Below, piece by piece: positions 21,391 through 64,000 of a DNA stretch of 64,000 nt. The notes beneath the pieces were generated by a model. It was not told the origin of the DNA, made no database searches, and worked only from the letters and a program-made list of their open reading frames with translations. The position numbers and the translations under genes were made by a program. Location of the stretch: contig CAJINV010000007.1 in assembly GCA_905178155.1 (NCBI GenBank), positions 938,627 to 1,002,626 on the forward strand, given 5' to 3'. This stretch comes from Amoebophrya sp. A120 (Eukaryota; Protista; Dinoflagellata). The first letter of the stretch is position 1; the number at the start of each line of letters is the position of its first letter.

Positions 21391-24300
21391 ATGCGTTCCA
21401 GCCTCTCTCTCGTCGCCAAAACAGGCGTGCTGCTTGCAACAGGTTCTCTTGCAATCCAGACCAAGGCACCTGGAGGTGGTGCCAACACCCGCGTCCGCAC
21501 CCAGTCGAAGTCCTGGATGCAGAAATGGAGTTCCAGCCCGGCAACGAAGTTAGCGATTGGTGCTGCCGCGTCTCTGGGTATGTTGTCGAACGCCGCGGCG
21601 GTTTCCGCGAACAGTCAGGGAGCAAGGGTGACCCCGGAAGAGAACCAGAATGCGTTGATGAACATCGCTGGGTCGGAAACTGCTATGGCCGACGCCTTTC
21701 ACACCTTCGCTGCCAAGTTCAACAAACCGTATGTCAGTGTGGTGGAAGGTACTGAGTTGGAATTGTTTTTATTCTTCCTACTGCGTGATAGATCACATGA
21801 CAGAAATTATCTGTGATGCTGAACTTCCTATGCATGCTGCTGTGCACCACTGGATGGAGACTGATGAAATTCAAATTGAAATTTGTTTCACAGCATCAGG
21901 TTTCGCCTCTGCCTCTTCCTACGACTCGGCCGTCGATGAGGCGCCGAAGGAAACGTCCCATCAGGGCATCGTCTTCAAGCCCGCCCCGGGAATGGAACAG
22001 GAGTATTTGGACAGACGGAACATCTTCGAAGATAACATCAAGAAAGCCATTATGGAGAACATGAAGTCCGAGGGGTCGAACAACATCGACCGCGCGCGGT
22101 TCGGTATCACGAAGTTCATGGACCAGACTTCCGAAGAGTTTGCGAAGAAGTTTTTGGGCTTGGCGGTCACTGACGAAGCCAAGAAGGAGGTGTTGGGGAA
22201 GTTCGGAAAGATTGGTATGTTCATTTTTTGCAGTTGTTCTCGATGTATTTTCATATGCCGCAATTGTTTATGGTGTGATTTCACGTCGCATAGACAAAAA
22301 TGGTCATTTTCAACATCTAATCGCGACTGTATAGTTAACTTTCTGCAACCTTTTGTAGCAGTCACGCACAGATGGATTTTTTGCATCATTTTGTGCTGAA
22401 ACAAGAGGAAAATCACAAACACGAGAATGATACACCGGCTCTTTCGCAGAAGTCTATGCGATCGATTAGCTGGTGCAGTTGCACCAGATAGTTTTATATT
22501 TCTGATTACAGATTCCTCTTCCCCCGCCTCCTCCTCCACCGCCAAGTACTTCATGAAGCCGAAGTCCACCATATCACAGGAAAAAGTGTTAACGTTGCCG
22601 AAATTTGTGATGCAGCAATGCATCACTACACGTCCCACAATTTGTCATGCATAGCATGCATCCCGGGCTACATTTGTGATGCATGACTGCAATCGGTGAA
22701 AACCGCTGACGTTAGCACTTTTTCCTGTGATACACCATGAAGGCCCTCCTTCCCTCCGGTTCCAAGGATTGGGTCGAAGCCGGTATGACAACGGATGTGA
22801 AGGATCAGGGGCAGTGCGGGTCCTGCTGTATCCTGTGTAAAAACGTCCCCGCCTCATAGTCAAGTTGGGAAATCTGCAATACAAATCTCCAAGTTTTGGA
22901 AGTTGCGCATGACAAGTTTCCATCTGTAGTGTATTTCTGGTTAGCAAGGGCAGCCGCGTGAGAAACCCAGCTTCTCATCCTGTTTACAGCATTACAAATT
23001 CCAAAACGCGACTGAGAATGGCTCTCATGGAGATGCGCATTACAAGCGTTTCTGTCATTGCGCATTTGCGCGACAACTCTGGCTTGGGGACGCTTTTGCT
23101 GAGGATATGCTGGGCGTTTTCCACAGTGGAGCAGCTGGAATCCATGGCCCGCATCGAGGGCATCACAAGTGACTTCATCGGCTCTCCTCAGGAACTAGTC
23201 TCCTGCGACCACCACGGAGACGAGGGGTGCAACGGCGGGCTGCCGGTGAACGCGTACGAGTGGCTGGAGGGATATCCACAGTAAATTTCCTGTAGACGCA
23301 CACATGCGGTCGCTGCATGGCAAAACTTGGCTTCGATCCTAGTTTAGCATGACAAGTTTCACACTCCAAATTGGGGAAATTTGTGATGCACCTTTTACAT
23401 GTACGGGAAATTTGTATTGCATAAGGGAAAACCGTTGGAATCCGAGACAGACTACCCCTACATGAGCGGAATTACGCGACAGACCGGGAAGTGCACGATG
23501 GACAAGTCGCTCGGGGAATTCAAGGTATGGAGGAAGAAATTTTGCTTCACACGGGTGTTTTGTATCACTATCAGAGCTTATACGTCTGCTTGTGGTTTCA
23601 CCATGACAACGTCTTGATGACCATTTTAATGCGGTTGCAAACTGAGCTGAACTTCAACTTCTCGTGCGAATCCCAAGCTGCAAATTGAAACTTATGATGC
23701 GCAAGAACTACGAAACACAACTCTCAGGTCGTGTCTTACAAAACCGTCGCCGAGGACTCCTTGGACGAACCCAAACTCGTCGATTACCTCCTCTCCTCCG
23801 GCCCTCTCTCCATTGGTGTGGACGCCACGCAGTGGCAGCTGTACACTGGCGGTATGATGGACGCGGATCAGTGCAATGCGGAGCAACTGGACCACGCCGT
23901 GCAGGTGGTCAAGTACATATGCAACACAAAAGTATAATCGGTCCTAGTGGTGACTGCATGACAGATTTTTCAGAAAAATCCGAAATGGAACTATACCTGT
24001 CATGCAGAGTGGTCTCGCAATCCAGAGTACATCTGTGATGCATGAGTTCCATTCCTGCGATTGATACTTTTGTCGATTGGATAGCAAACTGGCTCCGACG
24101 ACTCTGCCAACGGCCCGTACTTATCCTGTGCAAAAGTATCGTACTCGTATTGCAATCATGCATTACAAATCTTGTTCTTAAGCTAAATCCGCATTACAAA
24201 TTTCATTTCTCATGCTGAGGAAATCTGTGATGCATTTATACGAGTACGATACTTTTGCAATGCATACTACTACACCGTCCGCAACTCCTGGAACACCGAC

Positions 24301-24492
24301 TGGGGTGAGGACGGTTTTATCCGCCTCACCGCCGGCGAGGACACCTGCATGCTGACCGGCATGGCGACGACGGTGGATGTGGAGGCGGTGAGCAAGGAAG
24401 GGCCTGCTGATGTGAAAACCCCGGGCGTCACGATCGAGGAGCTGACCGACGAGGATGTCGACATGCTCAAGGAGAACACCATGGTCGTGTAA
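21391..24492 (+). CDS. Papain-family (C1A, cathepsin L/F-like) cysteine protease precursor
   Basis: Signal-like N-terminus, I29-like prodomain (RRNIFEDN...FGITKFMDQTSEEF), DVKDQGQCGSCWAFS, GCNGG, LDHAVQVV, VRNSWNTDWGEDGFIRL. Three GT-AG introns and five TIR elements. Confidence 0.92.
21749..21893 (+). other. Canonical GT-AG intron
   Basis: GTACTG...TCACAG; phase 1, in frame. Confidence 0.7.
22215..22511 (+). other. Canonical GT-AG intron
   Basis: GTATGT...TTACAG; phase 1, in frame. Confidence 0.75.
22572..22732. mobile_element. Introner family H
   Basis: TIR; DR cacca. Confidence 0.88.
22829..23107. mobile_element. Introner family C in catalytic Cys-Trp codons
   Basis: TIR; DR tgctg; removal gives CGSCWAFS. 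Confidence 0.92.
23273..23423. mobile_element. Introner family D
   Basis: TIR; DR aggga. Confidence 0.88.
23525..23727 (+). other. Canonical GT-AG intron
   Basis: GTATGG...TCTCAG; phase 0, in frame. Confidence 0.8.
23918..24083. mobile_element. Introner family K (single copy here)
   Basis: Imperfect TIR TATGCAACACAAAAGTATAATCG; DR gtaca/gcaaa. Confidence 0.75.
24122..24266. mobile_element. Introner family A
   Basis: TIR; DR gtact/ctact. Confidence 0.87.
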
Positions 24493-25475
24493 GTTGCGAT
24501 GCGGTTTTTTACTTCCGTCGCTCCGGTGGTCACTGTTTCTCGCATGATCTTGACACGATTTCACTTTCGGATAACCACAACCTTTGCTGTTGTCAGTACA
24601 CTACTTGTTGTCACAGAGACCAGAGTATCGGTTTTGTGCTTATGTCAGTGGGGTTACGCCGCATGATTCTGTCATGCTGTGTTTTCCACACAAATTTTGT
24701 AAGTTGAGCTTTTGTCGTACTAACCTTTCTGTATTCTACCTGTCCATAGTATGGTTCCTTCGGTCTTTACTACGTACTTCCACATCTAGAATACAGTATA
24801 AAAATGTTATTTACAACACAAGATTTCAACGATCAATGTCTGCTGTTTGCATTTTCACACGCAATTCTGATTTTCCATACAGAACCTTTTTATATTGTCT
24901 ACACAGTTTGAAAGTTTCTGGTAGTTTGCCGCTGTGATAACAGTCACGTTTATTTTCATTTTTGTACATGATCATCAGGATGAAGGCCAGCTTTTCGAAA
25001 CCTAGCCTACTTTCCATGAAGAATTTCCTTCTGTCTGCTTGAAATAAATCAATGAAATCAAGAATAAAGCTAAACCACATGAGAGCGTGTGCGTCTGCTT
25101 GTACGGTAATGAAGGGCATTTATACCGGTGGGATGCACAATTTCGACGTCCTCGTAGAAACGAAATACAAGACGAAACACAAAAAAGAATCTCGATGTGT
25201 TAGTCTTCACCACATCGGAGGTGTTTTTTTCCCGTTTTTTCAGTGCCTGCTAGTCATTCCGTGATCTATGTGCTGCAGTGCTATTTTCAAACTTCCCTGT
25301 GGGAAGCAAGGAGCGAGAGGTGACAAGAAAGGTAATTTCGCATATTCTGGCTTTTCATGGCCATATCATCGTCACTCAGAGAGGAAACCATCACCACCAG
25401 CTTTTTCTCCTTGTCTTTTTGTGCAGTTTCAAGTTTTTTTTGCTGCAAAGAAAACGAAAGTGCGTGAGCAACAAC

Positions 25476-26673
25476 ATGCGGTCTACTGTCTCCACGCTGG
25501 TGGCAGCGAGTGCTGCGTGCGTCTCTGTCCGCGCTGACGACGCCAGCATGGCCGACATAAGGGGTGCCGAGTTAGAGTTTGGAGATGAGGTAGAGCTGGA
25601 AGATAAGACCTCGAATAAAAGGGAAGGAAAACAAGGTCCCGAACTCGCAGACAGGACGCGAGGGGAGAAGCTAGACGAAGAGCAAGAGTATTCCTTCACG
25701 CAAAAGGAAATCACCGGGACGGTGACCGCCGTCGGGAGGGACGCTGCTTTTTCTGCCGACTTGCCCGCTGCGTCTTCAACTGTGGGTATGGTCGTGGAAA
25801 AGATCATCACCGACAAGGAGCTCACGAGCGGTAATGACCTTGCCGCCATCCGGCGTTCCCTCGACCACGAAGAGCTGTTACGGGCAGGCGCGGACGCCAA
25901 TTTTGACGGTGTTGTGGACAGAGAGGAGAAGAACACTTTCTGTTCAAAGATTGCGAACACCTCCGGGTCCAGCTAGCTGGAGATGCATGCAACAGCCCTT
26001 GGGTGGCTTCCTCGTGCTCTCAGGCCGGCCTGCCTATCTGCGGCACAAGCAGCGTCACCACAAGCGGCGTCGCCTGATGAAAGCGAAACGGCAAGTGAAG
26101 CGGACCTTAAGGAACTGCAAGAATTGGTACATCATGATCATAAGCGTAATTCTCATAAGTTTAAGGTCTGCAAAAATGCTATGAAGGTCTGTTCGTTTGG
26201 ACCAGCAGAAACCCGACGCGACCGCGTGGTCTTCATAGTGATCAGCATCGATCCCGACTGTTTGTGTGCTTGAAATGCAATCTGTCATGTAAATGTGTCT
26301 CTGCGATCACTTCCACTAACTGCAACATATCACAATCCAGGGACAAAAGAATTGGCGGGAAGCGGAGCTAAAAACTGCGGTGGAAGCGGCAGAGCGGGCA
26401 CACGTGCTGGCGGAGGAGAATCCGAGAGACAAGAGGGTGCAGGAGTGGAAGCAAATTTTGCTCGACGACGCCAAAGAGCGCGTGAGGAGGGACTGGAACA
26501 ATCGTGAAGATCCCGCTGTGAATATAGTGGAAACTGGCTCGTACGCAGGCAGGGTGAGGAAAATTAGTAAAATTTGGCTGTCGGAGAGTCCTAATCACGA
26601 AAGTTGGAACACTGAGAATAGCGTCGAAAAAATGATACATGACCCAAGAACAGCACCACGACCTCGACCATAA
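25476..26673 (+). CDS. Hypothetical secreted protein
   Basis: MRSTVSTLVAASAACVSVRA signal-peptide-like start and acidic body. GT-AG intron 26166-26340 joins in frame. A further intron near 25910-26023 is needed but unresolved. Confidence 0.5.
26166..26340 (+). other. Canonical GT-AG intron
   Basis: GTCTGC...ATCCAG; phase 0. Confidence 0.6.
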
Positions 26674-27748
26674 TGAGGTTTCTATTCGTCGCTGTCACGG
26701 TGGCAAGGCACATTTAAGATTTGGTGCGCACGGGCCGTCGGGCGTCGTAGGTCGCAACCACACGACCGGTGCTGCAGCTGTGAGTATGAGACGTGAGGAT
26801 CTGGCAACATTTTTGGTTTTGTTCTGCGATCCTTTCGTGACCATCTTGCAGTACGTTGTCAAGATTCCTCCTAGTAGAACATCATCTTTAGTTTTTCCCC
26901 CGATCCGCATTCAGTTTCAGCTGTTGGTGTGTATTAGCGATCAAATCAGAAATGCAAGGTTGGTTCGGTAGTATAGCATCCAAAAAGATGAGCTGCGATC
27001 TCCCCGGAGGATGTTGGCCTGCACGAAGATCAAATATATGTTTTTTTCAGCCAACATTCGTCTGAATCTTTCTTTTCGATCGGTCGTTTCACTTGAGTGG
27101 TCGAGCTTGCTCGAAGTCACTTGCCACCAATGATTCGGTAAAAATGCTCTTCGGTCGTGTATGTGTAGTCCGGTAATTTGTCGCGCGCTCCGTCAAGCTT
27201 CTTCATCTTCGTCTCTTCTGCTTTTACCGTTGCCAATATTGTTCCGGTCTCGACGTCGTTTTGAATCTTTAGTCGCAAAAGTGCCGCAGACCTATAATTT
27301 GCTCGGAAATTTTTACTCAGTAGGATCTCTTGTCCATGTTCGCGAACAAACCACCGGCGATCATTTTAGAGTGAGAAAAACTCCGCCAAAACCACCAGAC
27401 AGGTCTGTTTACCACGACAAAGAAGTGTGTAGTAGCTGTTCTTCGTTTTTTTATTCCCGCTTGATCACTATAATCATGTTGTACTACCTTCTCTCAGATG
27501 AAACAGGAGCTGTTCTTTGTGCGTCAACTTTGTCAGCAGGAACAATGGGGTCCATCCTCTTTTCAACATGTATCACAGTAGAAGTAGACCCTTCTGTAGC
27601 GTCGATCATGTTGCCACCTTCTAGAAGAAAACACAGTTGAATTGACAATGTAAGTACTAACCTCCGCGGTTGCACATTTGTTTCCACCTAGTTTCGCGGC
27701 TTCCGTCTTTGTGATCGCTAAAGTAAGCTCGTCGTAGAAACACGTAAA

Positions 27749-33700: not shown

Positions 33701-36700
33701 TCGCGGTGCTACGGCGCAGGTCAGCAAATATGATCGATTCCGGACTCAGCTCGTGCTAAAAAAAATTGATCATACCGCAAAAGCTGTCAGCTTTTGCCGA
33801 TTTTGCCACGTTTTGTTGGCCGTTTTTCCACGTTCTCCGCACTGAAAATTGCTGTTTGAGATGGCCTTTTTTGGTCCCGTCCCTGGTCGATCGCTCTGGC
33901 GGCGATCCTGTGGAGGCGTGCCAGAGGATGCCACCGGAGGTCTGCCCAAGAACCCCAGAACGCCTCAAAATAGAAGGCCCAGCCCTTAGGCTTTTGCGCG
34001 GCCCCCAGCACAACCCATGCATGTTTGTCGCAGCACCGTCTCAGCGGGGCTAGAGCTGGCATCCTGAAGGCCATTCCTTTCCTCCTGGGCCGAGCATGTG
34101 CCAGGCTGCGTGGATCCTTTGCCTCCATCCATGTGACAGGCTTGGGAGCGGGAGTTATGAGAGACAAGCGCCCGACGGCGGGGCCGGTAGGTGAGGAGGG
34201 GCTTGGACCGGTAAGAGGGGGCCGGCAAGAGGCCGAAGAGCAGAGCCAGGACAATTGTCGCGGGCGACATATCCGCGCCAGTCGCCTCCTCGTAGCTAGT
34301 TGAACTACTACAGGCAGCCAGTCCAGAGCTCAGCAACGTTGCCGCCCAAGCAGAATGCTCCAGGCCTTACCTCCAAGCCATGCAAATTTTCCGCCGAAAA
34401 AGAAAAATCGCTGCCGAAATACAGGATTTTTGTTAAAAAAGCGCAGGCTTTTTTCAAAAAAGTAGCATTTTTTGTGTCTTGAATTCGGCCAAATATGAGT
34501 ATGATCGATTTTTTTAGTGCGATACAATACTTTTGCAGTTCATATCGGATCATCAGGCACAAAACGACTACAACGGCTCTGCCAGCAGCAGCGCAAGTAG
34601 CTCTTCTGGGAAAGACAATCGAGCTGCGGGAATAAAAAAAGAGCACCCGTCGGTACGGATAAAAGGGTGGGCGAAATCTTTCCTGCAGTCTCGCGAGCAC
34701 CAGAACGGACAGCAGGTGGAGCACTTTTTGCAGATCATCGAGATGTTTAGCGCAGGGATAAGTCTGGATAACGCGGGAGCAGCCGCGCGACATACAGTGG
34801 ACCACGGCCCAGATCAATATCAAAACGAAATCGCCACCGGTCTCGATTCCTGCTGCGAAATTTTTCAAGCCGAGAACTTGAGCGAGGCTTTTGTTGAGAA
34901 CTTTCGGAGGAAATGGAAGCAGGAATTTGAGGAAAGTGCCAAGGAAATAAATCATGACGACGAGGAGTTAGACGACCCTCCGATCGAATCTGACGACACG
35001 ACCCCTGCTGCGCATCATGATGGCGAGGGAAGTTCCTCCGCGACCTCTAGCTCAAGTGCGGTTTTTACGAAAACAGGGGCCGCAATGACGAGCAGGCAGA
35101 ACGACGACGACGACAACGACCTTAGGACGAAGCCGAAAGAGCAAGTTTTTACGAACGAGCGGTTTCTGAAAGACTACCGCTACGTATGACAGTGCACAGC
35201 TCCCCCTCCCCCTCATTTGTATTGCATGAACAGCAATACAAGCATCAGCAAAAATGCCGGCTTTGCATGACAAATCTACACTGGATTGCCATGCCATTTG
35301 GACTACCAGAACTTGTCATGCAAACAATGCCAAGAGGCAAAGGGTAGATTGGGTATTTTGCATGACAAATGAGGGTGTTCCGGGCTGTGCTTTGTGCACC
35401 CCTCGGACCCCGCACCCCCCCGGGCTTTAGTCGCGCAGTCTGTTAAGCATGACAAATGAGGGGGAGGGGGAGTTGTGCACTGTCATACTACGAGTACGGC
35501 AGTTGGTTTCAGGGGAGTCCGTACTTCGGCATGGAGGTGCAGGAGCTTTGCACCACAGACAGCAGCGCGTCAACGTCTCATGGCGAAGCTAGCATGACAA
35601 ATAGCAGTGCCTATGGGGAAGTTAGCATGACAAATCATGCTTCAACACAAATAAACGTAGAAGAGCCGGATTGGAACGACCCGGGGTGGTGGTGGGACAA
35701 AAAACAGAAAAAATGGAGGCACGAAGCGATGGAAAAGGCTGCTAAGGCAGCAAAGCAGAAATCCGGCGCTTCATCTCATCCTACTAGCAAAAGCAACACA
35801 GGCGCTGCACCGTCGTCCACCTCCTCTGCACATCGCTCTCTGATCAACAACCCAGCGGTTCTAAATTCCCTGAAACACCGCGGCAACAAGGATCTCCCCG
35901 CGTTCAAAATGAAGCAGAAATTTCGGGAGTTGGTTATGACCCGCTCAAACATTTACAATTTCAAACGTTAGAGTAGAATCAGGATTTTGTCTTGCATTAC
36001 GAGCATGACAGACCCGCACAGCGTTCCACTTTCTGCAATACAAATTTCGCCAGAGATTTTAGTGCGGTTTGGGACTTCCGAACTTGTCATGCGCAATCCC
36101 ATGAGACGAGTTGGCTAGGTCATGCACTTCTTGCATCACAGACTTCCAGACTCTATTGCAACGCTTGAGATTTTTGTAACACCTGAGCAGGTTATATTGG
36201 TCGCTGAGCAGGACGTCACGCTGGTTCTCGGGCAAACCGGTTGCGGAAAATCGACACAACTGCCCCAGTTTCTTCAGGGCAACATCGTCTGTACGCAGCC
36301 ACGGAAGCTCGCGGCGATCTCGTTAGCGCAACGGGTTGCGAGCGAACGGGGGGAAAGTCTGGTACAGCAGAGCAGCGGCGCCGGCGTAGTTAATAGGGCC
36401 ACTAGCAACACAAATTCCGTGGGCTACTGCGTTCGTGGGGATGTGAATATTCCCAAAACGACGGAACTGGTTTTCTGCACTGTGGGTGTGTTGATCAGAA
36501 AGTTGCTGGAAGACAACATAGACTTCACCCACTTGGTCATCGACGAGGCGCACGAAAGGCTATGCAATGCAAAAATGTCGTAGTAACTCATACTAGTAAA
36601 TCGCAGTCATGCATTACAAATCTGTTCATCAAGGTAAAACCGCATTACAAATTCCATTTCTAATGCTGACCAAAATTTGTAATGCGAGTTCCACTAGTAC

Positions 36701-39700
36701 GATGCTTTTGCATTTCATAAAGGTCGCTCGACATCGATTTCTTGCTCATGCTGGTCGCGAACCACTTCCGGCATTGCAGGAATTCGTCTGCAGCTACTTC
36801 GGGAGCAGGTGGTGCATCTTCTTCAAAGCCGAAATTCAAATTGATCATCATGTCGGCAACGCTAGATCAGAACATTTTCGACATGTTCCCGGACAGCAAG
36901 CGATTGGAAATTCCTGGTAGAACCTTCCCGGTGGAAACGTATTACGCAAGAGAGTTTCTGAACAACTATGATTTGACAAAACCCAACTCCGAAATCGACT
37001 ATGAGGGCATTGCGAGGTGTGTCCACCTGGTTAGGAACCACGGGAAGTTTGATCATTGGGAATTTTTGGAACAAGAGCAAGACGATGAAGTCGAAAATTA
37101 TAATCCGGACAAAAAAAATCAGTATCAACAAGGCGAGAAAATCTTCAAGGGCAAGGGGAAAAACGAAGGGAAAAGAAAATTCCGGAGAAGGTATGGGAAA
37201 GCAATCTTGATTTTCATGCCTGGTGTCGGGGAGATCAACAAGATGTGCCGGGTTTTGAAAGGGGAAGACAGGGATTTTCGCATGATTGACGAGGGGGACA
37301 ACAGCATGACGGCGCTGCCGTGTGATTCTGTTTTACCCCTTCACGCCTCCTTACCCCAGTTCGAGCAGAAAAAATGCTTCAAGGTTTTCGATGGGAAAGT
37401 GGTGATTTCTACGAATGTGTGCGAAACCTCCATCACGATCCCGGATGTGACCTGTGTAATTGACTGCTGCCGGGAGAAAAGGTTGACGCTACGGAAGCCG
37501 GGGGACTCGGTCGATGGGGATGTGGGGAGAACTACAGAGATGCTGAACACTAGTAATTCCAACACCTCTGACGCGCTCGACGACGACACCATCGATTTTT
37601 TGCAATCTTCGGCTAGCGAAATGCAAACCTTGCGGCTTCCGGTCTTGCAAGAAAAGTTCTGCAGCAAGGCGAGCATCGAACAAAGAAAAGGGCGCGCGGG
37701 TCGCGTGCAGCCGGGGATTTGCATACGCATGATTAGTCGGTCGTATGCGGAGAAAAAGTTGGAAGCGATATCAACATGAAAAATCCCCCCTCCCCATATC
37801 AAAATAAAAATTTGTGATGCTGATTTGTGCGTGTGCCCAGTTATTGCCCTTGGGCATCTCCCACACCAGACCGCCACAGACGACCGCAAGTTCTTCTTAC
37901 AGAGCAAGGACCGCCCCCCGAACTCCTCTGGAACCTTCTACCACATGAGCACATCAGTACACGGCTAACAGTCTCGACAGCCGAAGCGTTCGATATCCCG
38001 AACGTGTATTGGCAAAACCAGTCTTCACACGGGATATTCCATCCACGCCGGTTCTACGACTCGTCGTTGTTCGGAACTCCGTCCCCGGTGCGTGTACGTC
38101 GCGCAGAGCTTCAAGCTGATTGGGTTGAACAAAATCGACTTCTCGACGATATTTTCACCCATACAACTGCTGCGGCTACCGCTTCAGCTTCATACACTTC
38201 TTCGGATTGCGAAGCGGCCACTTCGTCTACAACTACTGCACCGCAGAGCCCATTTGTGGCTTCTACTCCAGAAAAACAGGTCGTAGATCGCACTAACTGG
38301 TCCATCCGACAAATCGAAAAAGATTACTTCCCGAGATCGGGCGCGGCTCGTGCAACGAACCAGTAGGGCGGGTGATTCCTTCACACTAGCGCCATGCTCG
38401 GTCCTGGTCAAGCAGGTTCGATGTTTGCGTTCAATTACGACGAGTGGCTGGCGCAGCAAGAGCATCGATCTCGCGGCAACAGTGCTTTTCAACCAGTGCA
38501 GTCCGACTCGGAGTCTCCCTACCGGGGTCACCTGGAGGCGCCTGAAAGTCCTTCGCTCGGGAATAATATCGTCAAGCAGCTGCAGTTTGACGATGACGAC
38601 GATCCGGTGGCACAGGAGGCAGACCTATCTGCTTGCCCTCCGGAAAATCCATTTTTACCACACCTAGCGGCCTCTCTGCAGTCGGATGACGGGTCGCCGT
38701 TGCCATTATTGCCATCTTTAGTAGTGGAACAGTTGCCGACGGTGTACATGGGTCCGCTCTTAGATTTCGTCGAACAGTCGGTGCTCCGCGACATCGAGAC
38801 AAACAATCCGCTCGTCGCGTCACCGGTGCAGGATGCAGCAGAGCCATGGTGGCAGAGAAACAAGACCTCCACTCTCCAAATCCAGGACCGGGAGCGCAAC
38901 TGGGTTCCCACTGAGTGGGAATTGTTGCACTACCCACCTTCCTTACCGCTGTCCCCTACTGACCTGATCCGACCACTGCCGTACAACTTCAACGGAGCCG
39001 ATGCGCTGCAGTTCCCACTGGTGAACCCGTTCGAGTTCTCGGAACTACGATTTGTGGATGACAAGCTGAAGTACGCGGAACGGGCTTCGATTTTCCAGAT
39101 CGAAAAGTACGAAAGTCGCTATTTCCCGTCTGCTGGCAGGTTAAGCGACATCCCCAGCAGTAGTAGTAGCCAGGCGTTCGTAGCTCCGGCAGATGAAACC
39201 AATCTCATGGCGGATCCTGCAATGGTGATGTCGGAGCCAGCTTCAGAACCAGCCCCACAACGAAGACGGCTCAATCCAGGAGTCGGATCTGGACCCGTGC
39301 AGCGCAGTCATCAGCCGGCTCGCTGGACCCCGACCCCGACGGCATCGGAGTTAAGCCGGATGGCCCGGGGCGTGCAGTAACCGCCGGGCCCTACACAACT
39401 TCTAACAAACCCTTACACGGTTTTCGACCGACCTATCAACGGACATGCTCCTCGTGACGACCTTCAGCGCGATTTTTACACACCGTTTCCTACAAGCAGT
39501 TTATCCACCATTTAATTTTCTTCTAACAGATGCGCAACTTTCTTCTCATGCAGGTGCTTCACATTTCCAGTATGACACTGCAGCACGACAGCCAGTTTTT
39601 CTTGGCCAACTTTGACTTCCAGCGGATACCAGAAATAAAAAGACATGCCAGACAACCAGAAGGCAACTAACACCCACTACCAGCTAATGCGCCTGAAAAT

Positions 39701-42700
39701 GCAACATCAACAATAACCGCGAACAACTTGCACACTAAGGTCTTGGATGTGAACACATCGGCGAGCGGATTATCCATTTAAATTTCTAAACTTCATTGTC
39801 TTTTTTAGTCTTCTCCTGGTCCCCGTCCTTGGCTCTTCTCTTTAGGCCCTTATCGGATGAGCTGTTTTTTCCGACTTGATTCGGGTCTTGTTCGGACCTG
39901 CCGTTTGGTCGTGTCCTCTTGTTCTCCCTCCTCCCCTGCTACTTAGTTTTCCTGGGTCCTTGTTCTCAACTAGGTAATCCTTGCGTCCTCCTCTCTACGA
40001 GCTTGACCTCTTGACTTCCCCCCCCCCCCCCCCCCCCTGTTCTTTTCCGACCTGCTCGGTCTCTGCGCTCCTTCCTTCTGTCCGTTTTTTATCGCCTAGT
40101 ATGAGCCCTCACTTCCAGAGGGACATCCTCCTAGCAAATTTTAAATTTCCTTTTTACAAGTTTACGGGCCTAATTCTGTTAAGGCAACCAAGTACTTAGG
40201 TTTAGCATTACAAATTTCTCAAGTCTGCTTTTTTAACTTGATAAAGTTATATCAGCAACAAGGGATGGATGTTCTAAGCGGTCTTTCTAAGCATGGGAGT
40301 TAACATGCTCGGAAATAACATCTCAAACATACAGGACAAAGAAGTGTTTTTAGCGCGTTCGTCGTAAAGTTTGTCTGCGTAAAGTTTTGGCGCATTCGTC
40401 TGTACTTCGTAAACTGACACGACAAAAATAGACTCGGTATCGTATTCTGACCTCGTGATTGCTCGACGTAAAGACTGAACTCATTAAACATACAAAATTG
40501 ATCTCGGTTTTGCACGTACTGACAGTTGTGTTTTGACAAAACGCAACGTAGCCATTCGCTTACGCGTATATATGTGATTTCACATCCACCGTCCACGTTC
40601 GGTGCTCGTAGCTCGTCTGGCAAAAACTCGGTTCGTCTCGTGTGCCTCGTAGCGTCCTAGTTTTGCGCCCATCGCCTTAGGTTGTTTCATAGCCGTTGCA
40701 GGCTACGTCCCTATGCTCTCCTCCTGGAGCTTGGATAGGGACGATTCCTTTTTTGCGCTGCTAAGCGGTTTAGGCACGGCGGCAGAGCAAGTTTTCACGC
40801 AGTGGTGAGCATGCACCCACGGTGCACTGCGTGTGGACCGAAACTTGTTCTGTGCGAGCACCCACGTAGACCCCCAGGCCCTTTTCATACCGCAGGTCCG
40901 GTATGCCTGTTCTCGGTCTTCTGGGACCCCGTGTGGCTGTAGTCGTCCTGTTGCCGCTGGCTCTCTTAGCTAGCTCGTTCGTTCGTTCAGTACCGTGCCA
41001 TTCGTATTCTGCAGCACTTCGTAAAGCCTTCCATCTACTTTTCTAAAGTATCTGACGTTTCCTTTTTCACCGCAGCGATGTGCCTGCACGCACCACCAGA
41101 AGTGCGACGAGGTGCCAATCGTGTTTCCACATGTGCCATCAGAAGTGCGTTGATGCGCGAGGGTCGTGAATGTTACATACATGCAGCATGCCCTGCTGCA
41201 TGTACTTCGGGTCCGGATGGATTTGTCATGCGGACACGCATGCATGGTTATGCATAATCATTTGCATTCTGCACTGACCTATCGCGGAACACGCACATAA
41301 AGAAGTCACGAAGCCATGACTTTTGTGTTGCCTGGTCCCCCCGGACCAGCACGGGGGACATCCGACGGACGGCGACGCAGCAGCTCGGGTGTGGAAGCCA
41401 AGACATAGAAGTACAAGATTTACTACCATCGCTGCGGATCATGAGGGGGAAATAGATTTTCCAGCGGTGCGAAGACTTAGTGATAGCGAGCAACATCGGT
41501 TTCTGCACATGCGCATCTCCGTCTTGGGCTTTTTATCGGCTGGCCGAATTTTTGAACTCCGTCTTCGGCATTCCATCCCCTTGACCGTCGCTGAAGCTTC
41601 TCCCCATCCTGTTTACGAAGCAGTGCTTCACACGCGCGACCAGAACATGCAGTCTTTTCTTCAACACGCTTGCCGACCGCTGCGGGAAAGTTCCAAAAAA
41701 TTTGCATGCACATCGGAGAATAGTTTATTTACGATGGGGCTACTAGAACTATTTAGAAATAAAATTTTAGTGGTTTACGTAATCGGGGGGCGGCTTGATG
41801 TCTGCGGCGGATGATGACAGTGCGCACACTCCTACAAATACATGGCTGCCGGGCTGCTTCCCGGTTGGTCTAGTACAAACAAACACTTTGGCACTGATCC
41901 GCTAAACACCTTGCTGCCTGCCCCGCCCGCTCGGGGAGTAATTATCTCTAGACAGGGCACCATCTGCGGTTGTCCTTTAGGGCGTTCGAGTCTAGATAGA
42001 ATGCTACCATGCGTAAATCTTTCATTTTGCATGGGCTCCTGGTGGCTGCTTCCACCGTCGGGGAGTATAATCTGACCAAACATAAGTCATTGGCCACTGG
42101 GTCGCTGTGACGCCGTGCCTGCACGCACCATCAGAAGTGCGACGAGGTGCCAATCGTGTTGATGCACGCACCGTCAGAAGTGCGTTGATGCGCGAGGGTC
42201 GTGAATGAATGAATGAATGAAATTTTTATTGGTTTTAGTATGGCCTGATGCCAGTAGGGACGAACAGCCCGTAGACCTCCGATGTGATGCTGATTTGTGG
42301 TCACAAATCATCGCTGTCTTCCTTATAGGGCAATAGGAGCCATGTGGCGCATTCCAAAGCCAATCTGTCATGCGCTTTCGGCTACTGCATACCCGAACAG
42401 GCTGAGGAAGTGCCGTCAAGCACTTTCTGCAAGAGAAAGCTGATTTGTGTACGCAAATTCAGCATTACAAACTTCGTTCTGATATGGGGTGGGGGGATTT
42501 TTCCTCACAATAAGCGAGCACCGAGGCGGAGATGGATATTCTTCCCTTGGAAAATATGGAAGCGTCAGGTTTGAAATCGACAAAGTTGAAATGATTTGTC
42601 ATGCATAAATTGCAAGGCATGAAGTGCCTCTCTTGTAGGGGCGGCAAGTGAGGCCGACTGTCAGCCTGTTTCGGGTCTGCGGTAGAGCTGCTAAAGTAGC

Positions 42701-45700
42701 ATGACAAAAGACGCCCCCTGTCCCTAAACAGCACGACAAACAGGATTTAGACGGCGCCGAAATTTGTCATGCGCCGCTTGTCTTCTTCCTGATGTCCCAC
42801 CTGCTCAATTCTCTCCACCCCGGACCGACATTTCCGGTTGCCCCGATACTGCTGCAGACCCGACAGCTACCGATAGCACCCACGTGGTGAATTCACGTGG
42901 CCACCGGGGAAAGCCTCCCGCCCGTCCTCAACGCGCAGCTGCGGCGCCCTGTCCCCGGTTTTCTACACTCTCCTCGGCCCTCCATCTAGAACTTGCTGTT
43001 GCCGATTTCCAGAAAAGATTACTCCAGATAAGCCAACGAACCCCGGAATGAAGGGGCCGCGCTCTGCCCCCACGAGCTTTCACTTGTGCGCGCTGGGGGT
43101 AGTGGCGTGTGCTGCTCCTGCCTGGTCGGCTTTGTCACCGGCTGGCACTCGTAAAACTATCCTCCTAAAAGATCCACAAGATAATAGAAAACTTCGTCCA
43201 TAATGAGTATGGAGATGGTGATGGTCTAGCCCGCAGCTCCTCCTATCCGTTGCTGGTGACCTGGTCTGTTTTCTGACAATAAGCGCTGTGTCGTCTAATC
43301 TATGGGTGCGAGTAGATGTATTAGTGCCCGGCGGGTTTCTCGCAGCAATAAGGAAACTGGCAAGGATAAACATCTGTCTGTGCTTCCAGTGCGCAGATGG
43401 ACTGTGCTCTGCCAAATAGTGAAGTAGTTTGGACTGCTCCAGTTCTGGTCCCGTTGCTGTATATTGTGCTCGGGTGCTGGGTGGAAAGGTCCAACAAATA
43501 TGTTGGCGTGTGTGTGTGTGTGAGGAGGATAGTTTGGAGTGCCAGGTCCGTTGGGCCCGGGGTGGCGGCGTCTTTGGGTTGATCAACTCACCCGAAACAC
43601 AATGCCATGCCCGCAGTAGCACAGTCTGTTTATGTCATGCGCCGCTTGGAAATTGGGCTTCCAAGTGGTATCGATTTTATGCATTACAAATTTTTTATTC
43701 AACTTTGACGATTTCGATCCTGACGCACCCATAGAAAACATCATCTTGCAACTTCTGGTCGGCTTGCAGGACGAAAAGTCGCAGAAGATTCTCACCGGAG
43801 GAGGTGGGGGAACTACATCTTCAAGCGGTGCGGGTGGTAGAAATGAGAATGTTACAACTTCTACGACAACACCAAGAGCAATACCAACATCCACATCCTC
43901 TGTGAAGAACAAGAACACCAAGCGTGCCGCACAGCTCGATATCATCGACACGTTTAAAGAGTGCCTCAAATACGCCCCCATATGAATTGCAAAACCAAAA
44001 GTATCGTATTCGTACTCGTATAAATACTAAACGGAAAAGTCCGGGAACGGGAATTTTTGCAAAAAAATTGTCACCGGCCCCGGCGCACTCCCCGACGTAG
44101 GTGCCCGCTTTCAGGTTGAGGAGAAGGTGCTGCAGGAGATCGGAAGTCCAGCACCGCGAAAAAGGTGCCCGTCAGTCCAGGCACGGGAGCATCTGGGCGA
44201 TTCGGCGAGCTTGTTTTCCCAGATAGGACATCATTATTCAAAAACTTAAAAAATCATCTTCAGGTACTCGCCGACTTACCTCTTTCCCGGGAAATAAAGC
44301 ACTAATCTCCACACACTAAACTAGTTAATCGCATACAGTCACACTGATGGTCTAGATAAATAAAAACCACTCTTATCATCATTCAAAACTAGACTCAGGC
44401 CCACGTGTTGGGAGTATGTTTTTGCGCCTCCGGAGATGAACCAGATGCACGCGGTCCGCTATTCTCTCGCCCCGCCAAGTCCGCCACAATCTCCACTTGT
44501 TGCACCACCTGGTGCAACAATGCTACGTGACGGCCTACCTGGATCACCTGGACGAACGACTCCTCCGAGGTATGGCCTTCCGCCCGTCTGGTGCCGGATC
44601 CGGACGCCCCTTGCGACATCCTACGCAACCGTTCTCGCCTGTCTGACATGAGGAATTGCTGCTTTGATTTTGAATGCGTAAGTCGCTATGGAGTGTTTAT
44701 CTAGCTAGTTTAGTGTGTGGAGATTAGTGCTTTACTCTGCCGCCTTTCGTCCGGGCCCAGGTAAGGACTTCTTTTACTGCTCGAGCCTTCTCTCGGCAAT
44801 CTTTGGAGAGCAGTGATTGAGCCTCCTCTGCTGCGCCTGATTGTAGAGACCTTGACTTTGGTTGATATGTTTTTGCAGTATGGAATCAATGAAACAAAGA
44901 ACAACACACACAGGGCCGACAAACTTACCTCGCCGCGCCACCTAACAATTTTTTTGCAAAAATTCCCGTTCCCGGACTTTTCCGTTTAGTAATAAATGCA
45001 TTACAAGTTATTTCCTCAGCATGAAAAATATAATTTGCAATGCTGATTTACCCGAAGAAAAAGATTTGTAATGCACGACTGCACTACGAGTGCGATACTT
45101 TTGCTTTTGCACAGGATACCCCAGTCCGCCCGTCGATGACGCGATTACCATTGGGCTCACGGAACTTGAGTCGCTGGGCGCGATTGAGTATCAACAGGTG
45201 GTAGGATCTACTACAACCAACACGGCACCCCAATATCTCTCGAAGCAGCTGCGCGTGACGCCTATCCCACGAAAAAAGTGTTACAGTTACACATTTGTAG
45301 TTAATTCAGCAACACAAATTTCTCTGCATGAGACAGAAAACTTGTAATGCAGAAATCCTACGGGAAAACAGAAACACGTATGAAACGAGGCTCCTATGCA
45401 TATACGGCATGACAGAGCTTGTCTGCCTTGCTTGGCCTGCAACACAATGTGTACTCCCGCAGAGGGAGCGAAAGAGCACGGCCCGAGCAATTGAAACTGT
45501 CTTGATTTGCATGAAAGGGGCCCGAAAATGAAACGCTCAGCGCTCCCCGGAATCGATTCAAATAAAACGCGAACGCCTGCCGGGGCGGTTGGCAAAAGAA
45601 AGACAGGGAAGCGACCAGAGGCCGGCGCCTTGGGGACGGCGACGGCCCTCCCGGCGCCTGCGCTCCCAGGGCGTGACAAATAGCAGGCAAGGCGGCCGCC

Positions 45701-48700
45701 GCAGCCGGCTCTGTCTTCCTTGTGCCCGTGCCGCGGCCGCTGCGTAGTTGTGTTGGTTGCCCTGAGTTTCATTTCGTGCCGCCCTGCGAGAATTTGCGTG
45801 GCTCTGGGCGAGCGGGCCGGACGCCCGTGGTACGTAGGGGGCGCCGAGTCTCCGCGTCCTTGCTTGGTCGCTGCGCCTTTGCCGCGGTTGGCGCGCTGCT
45901 CTGAGTTGCATGTTGCGCCGCCCCGCGGGAATTCGTCTGGCCCTGGGCGAGCGGGCCGGGCGCCAGTGGTAGGGGGCGCCGAGTCAGTCTCCGTGCCCTG
46001 GTCTGGCCGCTCTGTCGTTGCGGTGGTTGGTTCGTGCCTCTGAGTTGCATGTCGCGCCGCCCCGCGGGAATTTGCCTGGCCATAGGCGAGCGGGCCGGGC
46101 GCCAGTGGTAGACTAGAGGGCGCCGAGTTTCCGTGCCCTCGCTCGCCTGGCCGTTGCGTCTTTTAGCTGGGTGGTTCGTATGTAGTGAGGTCGCCGCACG
46201 GCTCTAGCCAGCCAGGGAGTTTTTTTGCCATATACCGTGAAAAACGGGCGGCAGTTTTCAATCGGCCGGCGGTGTTTTTGAACATAAAAAGCTTTCACTT
46301 GTCAATCGGCTCTGGCTGACCTGGCACCGAATCGCCAGCGGATTCTATCGGTCGCCGATCTAAAAAACGACGCAGAGGAGTCAGCAAAAGGGGCGCCATT
46401 CTGAGGCGCCTGGCGCACCTAATTCCGCCGATTTGGGGCGCCCTAAAAGGGGCGCCGAAAAAGTGCGAAGGCGGCAAAAGCTTCGAATCCGCATGCTTTG
46501 CGCGCCATTTTTGGCCACTTTTCGAGGTCGCAAAGACGGCCAACAAAATCGGGCATCTGTAATGTGGGGAGCAATCCAAGGCGCGCGACTTTTCAGCAAA
46601 AAAAAACAAAAAGCGGAAAGCTCGCCAAAATCTTAAAGCCAATCAAACAATCCGCATGCCATTGGCCCGATTTGGGGCGCCCAGGGGGCCGGGCTTGGTG
46701 GGGGCCCTTGGGTGGCTATAGCACTGGGCAGCGCATCACAAGGCGATCCTTGGCAAATACCCACGCGCTCGGTTTCGTCGTGATCTCGTGCTGTGTGGGT
46801 TTGTCGCTTTCGAAATTTTTCCCGACAAGTATTTTGCTGATATTTCAACAACCGAGCGGCATAGCTTCAACGCTTTAGCTGCGCAGCGACGGTTAGAGCG
46901 ACGACTGAAGCGCAAGCCACTGAACGAGAAACAGCAGCAAGCTTACGATCGTGTCAGCGATATGGTTGGACGGTTGGCAGCGTACAAACTACAAAATAGC
47001 GCGACGCATGCCGCGAATGTTGAGGCGGCTGCGACGTCTCCGCCGCTGATTTTCCCGCCGCAACACATTCAGGGACGACGGGGCACAGGCAAGACGCACC
47101 GCGGAAGATGTTTGCGGGACATGGTCACGGGCGCTGGCTTGCGGGGTGTGTGCTGCGCTCCCAGTGGCGCTGCTGCGCGATTATATGGCCTCGATGCCCA
47201 TACCATTCACGCGCTCATCAACGTGGCACCGTCACGAACTAAACTACAGCCGGATGGTTTAGCGTTTGAAGATATTGTGACCCCTACGGCCGAAAACGAT
47301 GCATGTTTGCGCTCGTTGGATTTTACATTGTGTGACGAAATTTATTCGGCGCAGGCGGCGTGGATCTTCGAACTTGACGCGGCGTTGCGGCGTGCGCGAA
47401 GCAATCCCGCGCCATTTGGTGGCGTCATTTTTGTGGGGATTGGCGATCGGCATCAGCAGCTTCCCGTATTAAACACGGCGGGTTTTTATGGATCACACTT
47501 GCCAGTCGCTCGCGCGGATTTGCTAGCCCATTCAGTGCATGCCGTTTCGTTTTTGAAGAAGCCCGTCGCAGAACTGCACCAGTTGGACAAATTGGAGCGA
47601 AAAAACGCGAACACCGAGCAAAGTTGGGCCGATTTCGTCGAAACCTTGGCAACGGAATCGCAAGACATTGACTTGCACAGGTTTGCGCACGTTAACAAAA
47701 TAACAGCAGCAGAGCGCGTCGCTTTGTCACCACGCGCGCAAATTTTAGCCGCTACGCATCACCAATGCCGTCGCTGGAATAAACTCGTTCTCGAAACGCA
47801 TCGCGCATTCAACCCCAGAGCTAAAGCAGTGACATATCGCGCAGAAGGGCGCTGCGAGTATGCTCCCTGTGGGAGTATCTGCGAAACAGTCCCCGGAGAC
47901 GATTGCCCGCCTATCGACTTGGAGCTCGTCGAAGGGTCTCGCGTGGAATTCTGTCGGCGTTATGGGTCCGTCGTGAAGCACACGAAAGGCGTCGCGCGCT
48001 ATTTAGGGCGTGACTTTGTGTCGCTCGAAGTTGAAACCGAAGGCGAGGCCGACACACTTGACGCGGAGCCATATACCAGCATGCTGCTTGTGCCGCGTCT
48101 GCCTATTCGAGTGGTCGACGCTTACGGGGAAGAGCGTCGGCATTTGCAATGTCCCTTGCGGCTAGCTTATTGCAAAACGTTCCACGCCGTTCAAGGCGTC
48201 ACAGTATCAGGCGAGTTGTTGCTTGACTCAGATGTCGACGCGTTTACGCATGGGGCGGGTTATGTGGTGTTCGGGCGAGTTGAAGACGAGTCGCAAATTA
48301 CAACGGTTTCGCTCAATGATGAGAGGCCGGAAAAGCTGACCAACATAGTGTGGCCGGAATTTCTCGCGTGACTGAGCGCATCCCGACCCGTCTGATCCAT
48401 ACACCGAAAAACACACGGCGACGCTTCATACGTCGCACCTTACGCGCTTGCTCGCTGCTCCTTTCTGCGCGATTGTGTTCCGGGATGCTTCGTCAGTCCA
48501 CTGCTCTACTTTGTTGCTCAGCCGACGACCTTGACAATTTGAAAAACCGCGCGCCATTGCTAATTTTCCAGTCCGCTTGTCGTGGTCGCAGCATTGTTTT
48601 GAGGTTTTTGATCTGATTTGTGCACCGTTTTGCGCGTTTTGCTGAGAACCGCCCGGCTTCGGTGCCATTTTGTACCGTTTCGCAAACTGATGGCGCAACT

Positions 48701-51700
48701 TGCGCGCATTTTGATCCATTTGCACCAACTTGAGGCAAGTTTGCGCGTTTTCGTGCTTTTTGCATAGCTTTCGCGGTCATTTTGCTGCTTTTGTTATTGA
48801 ATTAAGCCAAAGCAGTGCCATTCTCGCCGTTTGCAATGCTACTGGCTGCATTTGTTGCGTTTTTGACTCGTTTGCAATTGAACTAAGCCAAAACAGTGCC
48901 GCTTTTGCCCGTTTGCAATGCTACTGCTTATATTTGTTGCGTTTTTGACTAATTTGCAATTGAACTAAGCCAAAACAGTGCCACTTTTGCCGGTTTGCAA
49001 TGCTACTGGCTACATTTGTTGCGTTTTTGACTAGTTTGCAGCGTTTTCGTTGTCATTTTGCACGATTTCGCATGCTATTGACCTAATTTGCGCGCATTTT
49101 GTCCCGTTTGCTTTACAAAAACGCAGGCCCGAACCGCAACAATTTGCGAAATTTCGGCGAATATTCGCGGACTTTTTTTCGTCGCATTTTCCTCGATTTG
49201 GAACGTTTTTCGTGGCTTTTGCCATCGTTTTGACGTTTTTGCGTCGATTTTTGCACCATTTTGCAAGTTTTGCATCGAGAAAAATTCAGCGATTTTCGGT
49301 GCATGTGTTGCGTGTTTCGTAACATAATTTATAAAGTAACTGCAACACTTTTTTCTTGCGATAACGCCGCTCGGACACTTGCTGGTGAAACTTCCGATGG
49401 ATGCGCGGTTAGGGAAACTCCTGTATCCCGTGCAAAAGTATCGTACTTGTAGTGCAATCATGCATTACAAATCTTTTTCTTAAGGTACCCAAATTTTATT
49501 TCTCATGCTGAGGAAATTTGTAATGTATTTATACGAGTGCGATACTTTTGCAATTCATATCCTGATCTACGCGTCTATTCTCGGCTGTCCCATCGAAGGC
49601 GCTAGCTTGGTGGCCATGCTATCTGTGAAAAATCCGCTGCAGATATCCTGAGAAAAAACGTCACCACCCCAGATGGTGATTTTGCTACACAAGCCCGGAT
49701 GTTTTGTGTGTTGCGCATGACAAGTTTGGCCTCGTATACGTATTTTGATCCTGTTTATTAATAGCCTGCGAAACCGCATCACAAGTCGACCGTCTTATCC
49801 TGATTCTAGCATGACAGACTCCCGGATAGTACAACTAGCGGTAGTGTGAGACAGCACTGCTCATGCGGCCCTGCGCATAGGAAACATTTTAGACCTGCAG
49901 ATTTGCATGACAGCTATGGGGAGGGACGTTTTTAAACAGGACGCCAGAAAATTTGGACCAAGCAGGAGGCCGAGAAGCGGCTGCACTACCGCCGGAAGTA
50001 TTTGAAGCCGGGCGGAACGAAGTCGGATCACTATCAAAAGGAAAAATGCCCCCTCCCCATATCGAAATGGAAATCTGTGATGCGGAATTTGTGTACACAA
50101 ATCGGCTTTGTCTTGCAGAAGAGGACTGCAGGCAGATGCAGGACCTGAGTAGGGGCGTTTTGGCGTAGGCACCTAGCAGGGCAGGCGCGTCCTCTATAGG
50201 CCACATAGCATCACAAATTGCCTGCAGAACGCGGCGGGGCTTTTCGATTTGCCTTCTTTCAGTCCAGAGACGTTACAAATCAGCATCGCAAATTTTCAGA
50301 AGTGTTCCGCTTTGGTATGGGAAGAGGGGTTTTTTCCTTACGATAGCCACTGTTTTTTAGCGAGTTTGCTGCTGGTGAAGGAGAAATACAACTTGTCTGA
50401 TGACTACTTTGCGGACGAATTGAAAGTCCTGCCGGGATCCATCAAGGACGGCCTGAAACTGCGGAAACAGTATGCATTGCAAATATGTCTGGGTCTGGAA
50501 CAAGATGGCAACTTGTCATGCCCAATCTGAATGATGCAAAAAATCTGTGTTGCATGGTTGCCAACAGCCGTCCTTTTTTAACAAGTTGAGAGGGAATTTC
50601 TCATGCAGCATAGGCATGAAAGAGATCCCACAGAATCTGTCATGCCAGGTGCTGCATTGCAGACCTCATGGGTCGTCATGGAAACTGGCGTGACAAATCT
50701 TACATCCTGCTGCTTCCAGATGCAGACATATTTGCATTTGATAAACAGTATCTCCAGTCGATGGCACACCTGGGTTTTCTGTACCAGCAAGACGCAAGAG
50801 CAGTGGCGACGTCCAGAAGTTCTGCTTTTCTTGATCATGCATCACGGAGAAACAATAAATCTTCTGGCGTGGCGCGGTCTTCATCTCCCTCGCCGAACTG
50901 GCAGTGGCATCTGTTGAAGGCCGCAGTATATGACGTGCTGATGCATTACAATCTCAAACGTATACAATAGAATCTGGATTTTGTATTGCATGATGAGCAT
51001 AAGTAACAGACTCGGGGAGCATTCCACTTGCTGCAATACAAATTTCGACAGTTTGTAGTGCGGTTTGGGACCACTCCGGAACTTGTCAGGCGCAATCCTA
51101 TCAGAGTTGTTGGCTAGATAATTCACTTCTTGCATCACAAGTTTCCAGATTCTATTGTAACGTTTGAGATTGTAACACCTGAGCGGGCTATACAGTAACG
51201 TCAAGTTTTTTCCTCGTGAAGACGGTCAAGCCCGCGCCGACGTTTCGAAAAATCGGGTTGGGCAGTTCCATATCAGTTGCAAAACTATTCTCGTACTACG
51301 TAGTGATTGCTTTATTGCATTAGAAATTAGCTCAGCATGACAAATGGACTTTGTCATGCTTCTTCCCCTTGAGAACTAGATTTGTATTGCACGACTGCGA
51401 TTACAACTACGAGTCCGATACTTTTGCAATGCATATTCCACCGTGATGGACTTACCGGACCCAATATCAAACAAAAAAGTGTTAACGTTAACGGTTTTCA
51501 CAGTCAGATGGCAGTTATACATTACAGCTTTTGCCTTCCATGCATGCTACGCAATACAAATTTGGGCACCTTTTGTGATGCGTTACTGCATCACAAATTC
51601 CGTTAACGTTAACGCTTTTGCTTGTGATACCCAATGCTGACCAAGTATTTCCAGCTCGAAAGGGACCCCTTTGCGTACAAGGTGAATTATGAATTGCAAA

Positions 51701-63978: not shown

Positions 63979-64000
63979 TATGAACTGCAAATAAAGTATC
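63979..64000. mobile_element. Introner family A, left end only
   Basis: TATGAACTGCAAATAAAGTATC at window edge. Confidence 0.7.

Follow-up and report, generated by a model that had tools for sequence, protein, structure and literature searches.

Introners of Aureococcus, Micromonas, Symbiodinium and Florenciella descend from DNA transposons; one copy of the target site duplication (TSD) is removed with the element, leaving the mRNA unchanged, and those that recruit the TSD carry or co-opt GY/AG, with only some insertion sites working (PMC9860276). Two further systems lack GT-AG termini. In euglenid nonconventional introns a terminal inverted repeat (TIR) stem joins the two ends, pairing CAG (+4 to +6) with CTG (−8 to −6) within TSD-like border repeats and leaving a longer unpaired stretch on the 3′ side; pyrimidine|purine ends are favoured, the products are circular and the machine is given as unknown (PMC11282704, PMC11170887). 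Fritillaria borealis has introns derived from miniature inverted-repeat transposable elements, with TIR and TSD, which keep preferred AG-AC and AG-AT termini and a conserved U1 and are removed by an adapted U2-type spliceosome (PMC11282704, PMC13326754). In the dinoflagellate Amoebophrya sp. A120, a marine parasite, non-canonical introns make up more than 60% of the total. How they are spliced is named as a question still to be answered by the published account, which finds no clear splice signature, calls the sites 'variable' relative to the hairpin and the border 'unknown', and places the repeats '1-5 nucleotides' from the sites (PMC7789003). Here we analysed a stretch of 64,000 nucleotides of A120 (GCA_905178155.1, contig CAJINV010000007.1, positions 938,627 to 1,002,626 of the forward strand; hereafter the window), in which spliced contigs from probable RNA runs fit one fixed register of the border relative to the terminal hairpin at every introner intron that could be tested.

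The window contains 73 hairpin elements with TAT…ATA ends and 5-bp direct repeats (DRs). Most came from a search for inverted repeats with TAT…ATA termini, and the list was completed by hand and by a further scan blind to the terminal triplet. The DR is perfect in 46 elements and imperfect in 27, reproducing the count of an initial annotation made from the letters alone. The elements begin with TAT (71/73) or TAC (2/73), followed by seven variable bases and a run of A, and have a median length of 271 nt. By BLAST they form repeated families, with 141 loci elsewhere; contig joints show their removal from transcripts, and long plus-strand frames open once they are taken out. A 74-aa protease exon is 100% identical to protein P0121 of A120, its A25 homologue reaching 62%. 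The organism, the TAT repeats, the seven variable bases and the A run are those of the introners published for A120 and A25, which have DRs of 3–5 nt and average about 240 nt (Farhat et al. 2021, PMC7789003). The window elements are these already published A120 introner elements, and the question is their border. The 141 loci (L001–L141, contigs JACKZZ01… of a metagenome collection assembly) hold the same families in abundance, at 76–95% identity to window copies, with no overlap with window exons; searches of Rfam and viral_contigs each gave 0 matches.

To locate the cuts, we used contigs from four runs of one study, labelled 'RNA?' (X1–X3 from one sample, X4 from another). They represent spliced RNA, because a single X4 contig joins two GT-AG introns together with five element introns of a protease gene. 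Two stretches were examined, 22001-42000 (15 of 25 joints listed) and 49960-64000 (15 of 33 listed), with further joints taken from contig-piece tables; all joint counts below are among the joints listed. Five of the 15 from 22001-42000 were set aside, as they connect points within elements and reflect nested inserts or copies at other loci. The raw-read runs X7 and X8 had three reads each on the window and gave no junction information.

Every two-sided element joint (28/28, including the perfect-DR element starting at 50929) removes the element plus 5 nt and is compatible with cuts lying 1 nt upstream of TAT and 4 nt downstream of ATA (−1/+4). The informative cases are the imperfect DRs, of which 16 of 27 were tested, 13 seen from both sides and three from one side with length arithmetic. 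For the remaining 11, seven lie outside the two stretches, 30788 and 31050 have no listed joint, and 49644 and 56502 give length only. All 16 permit the −1/+4 cut. Among the 13 two-sided cases a 5′ offset of 1 fits 13, while offsets 0, 2, 3, 4 and 5 fit 8, 8, 7, 4 and 2; if each intron chose its cut independently and uniformly within the DR, P would be 5.5e-5 for offset 1 and 2.6e-4 for any common offset. The junction is fixed with zero ambiguity in two introns (59928>60468 and 60508>60763). DR position 5 comes from the downstream copy in five introns (36561, 54985, 55197, 59930 and 60510) and position 4 from the upstream copy in six (23918, 55636, 56979, 58229, 59930 and 60510). Lengths summed by the rule also match contig positions to the base, both for 19 helicase introns, two of them longer than 4 kb, and for 19 introns of the next gene (54567-62373). 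The introns that carry this evidence are as follows.

23917..24087, plus strand: introner intron of the papain-family protease gene; DR GTACA/GCAAA, position 4 from the upstream copy; joint 23916>24088, 1 nt ambiguity, X4
24121..24270, plus strand: introner intron of the protease gene; DR differs at position 1; joint 24117>24268, X4 and X1
36560..36723, plus strand: introner intron of the DEAH helicase gene; DR AAGGC/AAGGT; joint 36554>36719, 5 nt ambiguity, X4 and X1
50031..50349, plus strand: introner intron of the helicase gene; DR ATCAC/GCCAC, positions 1-2 from the upstream copy; contig piece starts at 50348, record position 914
54984..55145, plus strand: introner; DR matches at 2/5; only 5′ offsets 1-3 allowed; joint 54981>55144
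55196..55508, plus strand: introner whose 5′ end is N-TAC; the downstream copy supplies position 5; joint 55191>55505
55635..56034, plus strand: introner with DR 1/5; positions 1-4 from the upstream copy; joint 55634>56035
56978..57322, plus strand: introner ending AGA, not ATA; position 4 from the upstream copy; piece starts at 57323, record position 873, in agreement with the arithmetic
58228..58627, plus strand: introner; position 4 from the upstream copy; joint 58228>58914 with one letter between, X1–X3
58634-58917, plus strand: introner following the 6-nt exon 58628-58633
59929..60467, plus strand: introner with nested element 60172-60444; exact −1/+4; joint 59928>60468, 0 ambiguity
60509..60762, plus strand: introner with DR 1/5; exact −1/+4; joint 60508>60763, 0 ambiguity
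63150..63474, plus strand: introner whose original DR, GGACA, lies 3 nt from TAT; joint 63148>63474

The initial annotation had derived a single rule, N-TAT...ATA-NNNN, from three imperfect DRs in conserved motifs, and these lie where it placed them, around TAT 23918..ATA 24083, 36561..36719 and 50032..50345. Its three predicted segments agree with the contigs. The joint at 23917-24087 fits within its 1 nt ambiguity, and P0121 reads VVKYTG there. At 36560-36723 the joint is compatible: even its rightmost form, 36559>36724, takes position 5 from the downstream copy, and the protein reads DEAHERS and not DEAHERP; among 114 homologues the residue after DExHER is Ser in 50 and Pro in none. This position-5 assignment, which once rested on one case, now holds in five introns. 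At 50031-50349 only the downstream piece is listed, and the contig arithmetic yields exactly its record position. Here the annotation had held that an SDH motif needs positions 1 and 2 of the upstream copy; both come from that copy, and the motif does need position 1, but position 2 is silent at the protein level. The single rule fits all 16 tested imperfect-DR introns.

The DR itself is not the splice signal and is dispensable. The register stays the same in introns with only 1-2 matching positions among the 5 of the DR, and at 63150..63474 the 325 nt removed follow TAT, where a DR-defined cut would take 328. Neither is AG the splice signal. As the annotation had anticipated, the 3′ end is not marked by it: 4 of 73 window elements end in AG and none is GT-AG. 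G stands at +1 in 18/73, within an even spread of bases, and is never combined with an AG end (0/73), so that the GT/GC and AG termini of canonical U2-type introns are not those of introners. At the fetched loci described below there was likewise no enrichment of G at +1 (50/149, against 40-46 at other DR positions) or of AG at the 3′ end (11/149).

Every element-bearing gene of the window lies on the plus strand, and the three sites of the initial annotation could therefore not show, as it had claimed, that the offset follows transcription. Element orientation does support the claim. Within genes, one family occurs in both orientations, at 8:5 in the window and at 58:49 in motif-fetched loci, the element of 54984..55145 being opposite to the 24122/36561 family. 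All 12 RNA-tested introns able to separate (1,4) from its mirror (4,1), by a mismatch at positions 2-4, show (1,4); about half would be expected to show the mirror if element direction set the offset, and with random orientation 12/12 has a probability of 0.5^12 = 2.4e-4. No clean pair of same-family introns in opposite orientation, both excluding the mirror cut, was found (57548 and 54985 were compared). The removal at the RNA level favoured by the annotation is supported by spliced contigs and by a 1/4 split that tracks the gene and not the element.

In intron coordinates, the register places TAT at +2 to +4 and ATA at −7 to −5, with +4 opposite −7. The 5′ end of the window introns reads N-T-A-Y, like the canonical donors of the strain: all four supported ones are GTAY (GTAT or GTAC), at 21749 (P0121), 22215 and 23525 (joints) and 29629 (contig end). 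The two donors known from joints belong to the following introns.

22215..22511, plus strand: GT-AG intron of canonical type with donor GTATGT; joined on the X4 contig that also carries the non-canonical joints
23525..23727, plus strand: GT-AG intron of canonical type with donor GTATGG; likewise joined on this X4 contig

We then compared both ends in 221 oriented elements, 73 from the window and 148 from loci fetched with the family motif, where 199 elements were found and those with a DR below 4/5 (9), those of unclear strand (41) and the mis-paired L091 were dropped. +2U is invariant (221/221) and +3 is A or G throughout (221/221), as in U2-type donors. Changes at +2, +3 and +4 number 0, 2 and 5, both +3 changes being to G, and those at −5, −6 and −7 number 6, 7 and 1 (exact p = 0.006 pooled; outer pair, 0 vs 6, p = 0.03). 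A is present at −7 in 220/221 elements, and relaxed 3′ ends occur in both element orientations. The palindromic ends are thus under unequal constraint, because +2U and −7A are kept while their pairing partners vary. Sequence in common with canonical donors, +2U and +3A, gives the best account of the 5′ cut, a point that the initial annotation had not made. In Table S4 of PMC7789003, the nine leading A120 non-canonical classes all start NT and the nine leading A25 classes all TT, and A25 inverted repeats start TTA, which suggests that the two strains share +2U/+3A at different distances from the stem.

On the 3′ side, four window introns with a changed triplet (ACG, ACC, AGA and ACA) are removed as element plus 5 nt, and all keep the A at −7. 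For 59929-60467, folding predicts that the 5′ TAT pairs about 11–13 nt upstream of the ATA actually used. A ruler that starts strictly at the last base pair does not account for these introns, whereas one that starts at the helix register or at the −7 A does. The annotation's proposal that the 3′ site is measured from the stem is therefore only partly supported.

The explanation we prefer, to which we give about an even chance, is a modified U2-type spliceosome that has relaxed its demands at +1 and −2/−1 and locates the 3′ site by its spacing from the 3′ arm, perhaps with the A at −7 as branch. A non-autonomous TIR transposon would make a 5-bp target duplication, and because 5 bp are duplicated, any pair of cuts with offsets summing to 5 would restore the exon. 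The 1+4 split would arise because the element's TAT supplies +2 to +4 of the strain's donor GTAY, with +1 relaxed. The spliceosome would then read N-U-A at the 5′ end; the 3′ end would be set from the 3′ arm, perhaps from a branch adenosine at −7, and the hairpin, joining the two ends (+4 opposite −7), would stand in for U1 and for AG scanning. U1 small nuclear RNA (snRNA) was reported as not found in A120, for which Table S6 lists spliceosomal proteins including Prp8, SF1 and U2AF35/65 (PMC7789003); a U1-less spliceosome has a precedent in Cyanidioschyzon (bioRxiv 10.64898/2026.05.17.725761). More tentatively, and with greater doubt than assent, we propose an 'NUA…A-N6' code that dispenses with G+1, AG and U1. 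The TIR would supply the donor core and a hairpin-held branch A, every insertion with a 5-bp TSD would be a ready-made, target-independent intron, and A25 would use the same code at another offset.

A number of points weigh against a spliceosomal reading or the data beneath it. Step II of splicing uses G+1/G−1 and A−2 contacts, and all of these positions are random here. We infer the splicing machine from junctions and sequence. The branch-site fit at −7 is poor, with U two bases before the A in 25/73 and nTRAY in only 12/73; the fetched element L050, with moderate strand support, has C at −7; and a fixed branch at −7 was not supported for canonical introns, A standing there in only one of three supported ones. 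The end-asymmetry test is post hoc and not significant when restricted to the fetched loci (p = 0.15), mutation bias linked to transcription may add to the asymmetry, and strand at those loci is the call of a coding model that was right for 71/72 elements in the window, its training set. Class placement in Table S4 depends on its authors' aligner. Finally, the contigs come from two samples of one study, labelled only 'RNA?', and show the majority form, rare junctions being dropped, so that minor scatter is possible.

The strongest rival, which we consider unlikely, is a non-spliceosomal, structure-guided endonuclease and ligase, as suggested for euglenids or like TSEN/IRE1, acting at fixed distances from the terminal helix. 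It would account for the randomness of all four terminal dinucleotide positions except +2, for the long terminal stems predicted in most tested introns, for the clean splicing of a 6-nt exon between two elements and for the U1 snRNA not found in A120 (PMC7789003); euglenid introns, which exit as circles, have a similar staggered stem (PMC11282704). It does not readily explain why +2U is invariant though its partner −5 varies, why the donor agrees with canonical GTAY, why the removed length is unchanged when terminal pairs are broken, or why 59929-60467 is cut exactly though its predicted stem lies elsewhere. With A25 at offset 0 and A120 at offset 1, moreover, the two strains would still share +2U/+3A. 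No back-joint, such as a circle would give, occurs among the listed joints, although contigs cannot show the absence of circles.

Less probable again is a spliceosomal route in which branching occurs at other points of the element and the position of the 3′ site depends solely on the hairpin register or on a protein bound to the internal motif that the elements share. The poor branch consensus at −7 and the C at that position in L050 speak for it, as does an internal motif, GCATnACA or its complement, found in 66/66 short elements, one variant of which contains TGAC. Against this, −7 is the least variable 3′ position, with a single change in 221 although its partner +4 changed five times, and distances from the last TRAY are scattered and therefore provide no fixed ruler.

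Excision of the elements from DNA before transcription, in the manner of ciliate internal eliminated sequences, is very improbable. The elements do resemble TIR transposons with target duplications, and the joins were examined in RNA-like contigs only; but the DNA-like runs X5 and X6 hold 0.9 of the words of 32000-41900, compared with 0.25–0.34 in X1–X4, the 1/4 split follows gene and not element direction in 12/12 introns, and intron-retaining contigs occur in the same runs as joined ones. Reverse-transcriptase template switching is hardly credible: a hairpin with short DRs is a known substrate for it, and the window joins are known from contigs and not raw reads, but the joins are exact where the DR matches at 1-2/5 positions (55636, 59930 and 60510), joining brings back long open frames together with conserved motifs, and elements of 4.1 and 4.7 kb are removed in the same register.

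The minor spliceosome has its own donor motif, RTATCCTT, together with U11/U12 snRNAs. The introners do not carry this motif, their positions from +5 onward being variable, and the available text of PMC7789003 reports no minor snRNAs. Although they resemble euglenid introns in the TIR stem, border repeats, non-GT-AG ends and longer unpaired 3′ stretch, their stem is TAT/ATA at +2 to +4 and −7 to −5, not CAG/CTG; it starts at +2/−5, and at their 5′ end they imitate the canonical donor of the host. They share TIR, TSD and non-GT-AG ends with Fritillaria introns but show a preference for +2U only. Like the introners of Aureococcus and the other algae, they have a transposon origin and lose one TSD copy; the (−1,+4) code needs nothing from the target, and any 5-bp target should therefore give a spliceable intron. 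Unlike in the published A120 account, as far as its text was available (PMC7789003), the cases tested here all fit one −1/+4 register, no DR is needed and the U at +2 never varies.

What appears to be new here is the border rule; the element class is published, and the mechanism is our deduction. A fixed register, a dispensable DR and a +2U constraint were not found in the available text of PMC7789003, whose figures (Fig. 3, S19–S25) may show part of this, nor was the rule found in the available parts of PMC12130899, PMC11282704, PMC12005148, PMC11453091, PMC11170887, PMC13326754, PMC9860276 and PMC12787238; its terms were likewise not found in the accessible portion of PMC13149111. The register makes one code of apparently signal-free borders and explains how a transposon can land anywhere in an exon without cost. 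Misplaced cuts at imperfect repeats change residues or create stops, and tens of thousands of gene models become correctable there. If the NUA…A-N6 code is true, the 'unprecedented splice-site diversity' of the genome reduces to one rule; if removal is spliceosomal, the near-universal G+1 and AG contacts would all be droppable. The rule predicts that +2U is essential, that AG is irrelevant and that a branch at −7 or a circle will be found.

Two of the host genes are the following.

21392..24492, plus strand: papain-family (C1A) protease gene with 3 canonical and 5 introner introns; P0121, 100% over the queried exon
34549..53630, plus strand: 3′ part of the DEAH-box helicase gene with 19 introner introns, by contig arithmetic

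The helicase gene probably starts near 27750 and probably encodes a product of more than 2000 residues; its best protein match is only a 47% A120 paralogue, and a protein search with exon 31206-32102 gave no match. A source other than A120, considered for this reason, was rejected on the 100% identity of the protease exon. Two of its introners are unusually long. The 4.1-kb element 45262-49367, still removed as element plus 5 nt by contig arithmetic, contains a 549-aa PIF1-like helicase frame (46722-48371; Pfam PF05970, E 2e-7), which belongs either to a Helitron-like insertion nested there or to the cargo of some larger element. The 4.7-kb element 37768-42516, which has a perfect DR and is spliced from the helicase mRNA, carries a large nested insert with frames of 180 and 334 aa, the latter giving no match in a Pfam scan.

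Nested elements also occur at 11184-12190, 27812-29212, 32644-34544, 42555-43733 and 43981-45118. Within 32644-34544, an inverted repeat with TAT/ATA ends and a 3/5 flank (33630-33774) was left out of the intron count. The nested element 60172-60444 has a perfect DR and an ATG end, and low-depth intron-retaining contigs cover 60125-60440 and 60142-60440. The 6-nt exon 58628-58633 is kept in three runs, which fits intron-defined rather than exon-defined splicing. By eye, the left and right arms of 60510-60758 and of 55636-56030, both spliced in register, seem to come from unlike families, and little of the DR remains; recombination between two adjacent elements, with loss of the intervening exon, would leave such a pattern. 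The GCATnACA motif recurs across unlike families (for example in 24122-24266) at about 11 per kb of elements, compared with 0.2 per kb of exons and 1.6 per kb of seven introns that are canonical or presumed to be so; it could be a transposase site or the site of an intron-marking protein. Putative canonical donors at 5540, 7016 and 7902, identified by eye, also start with GTAT or GTAC.

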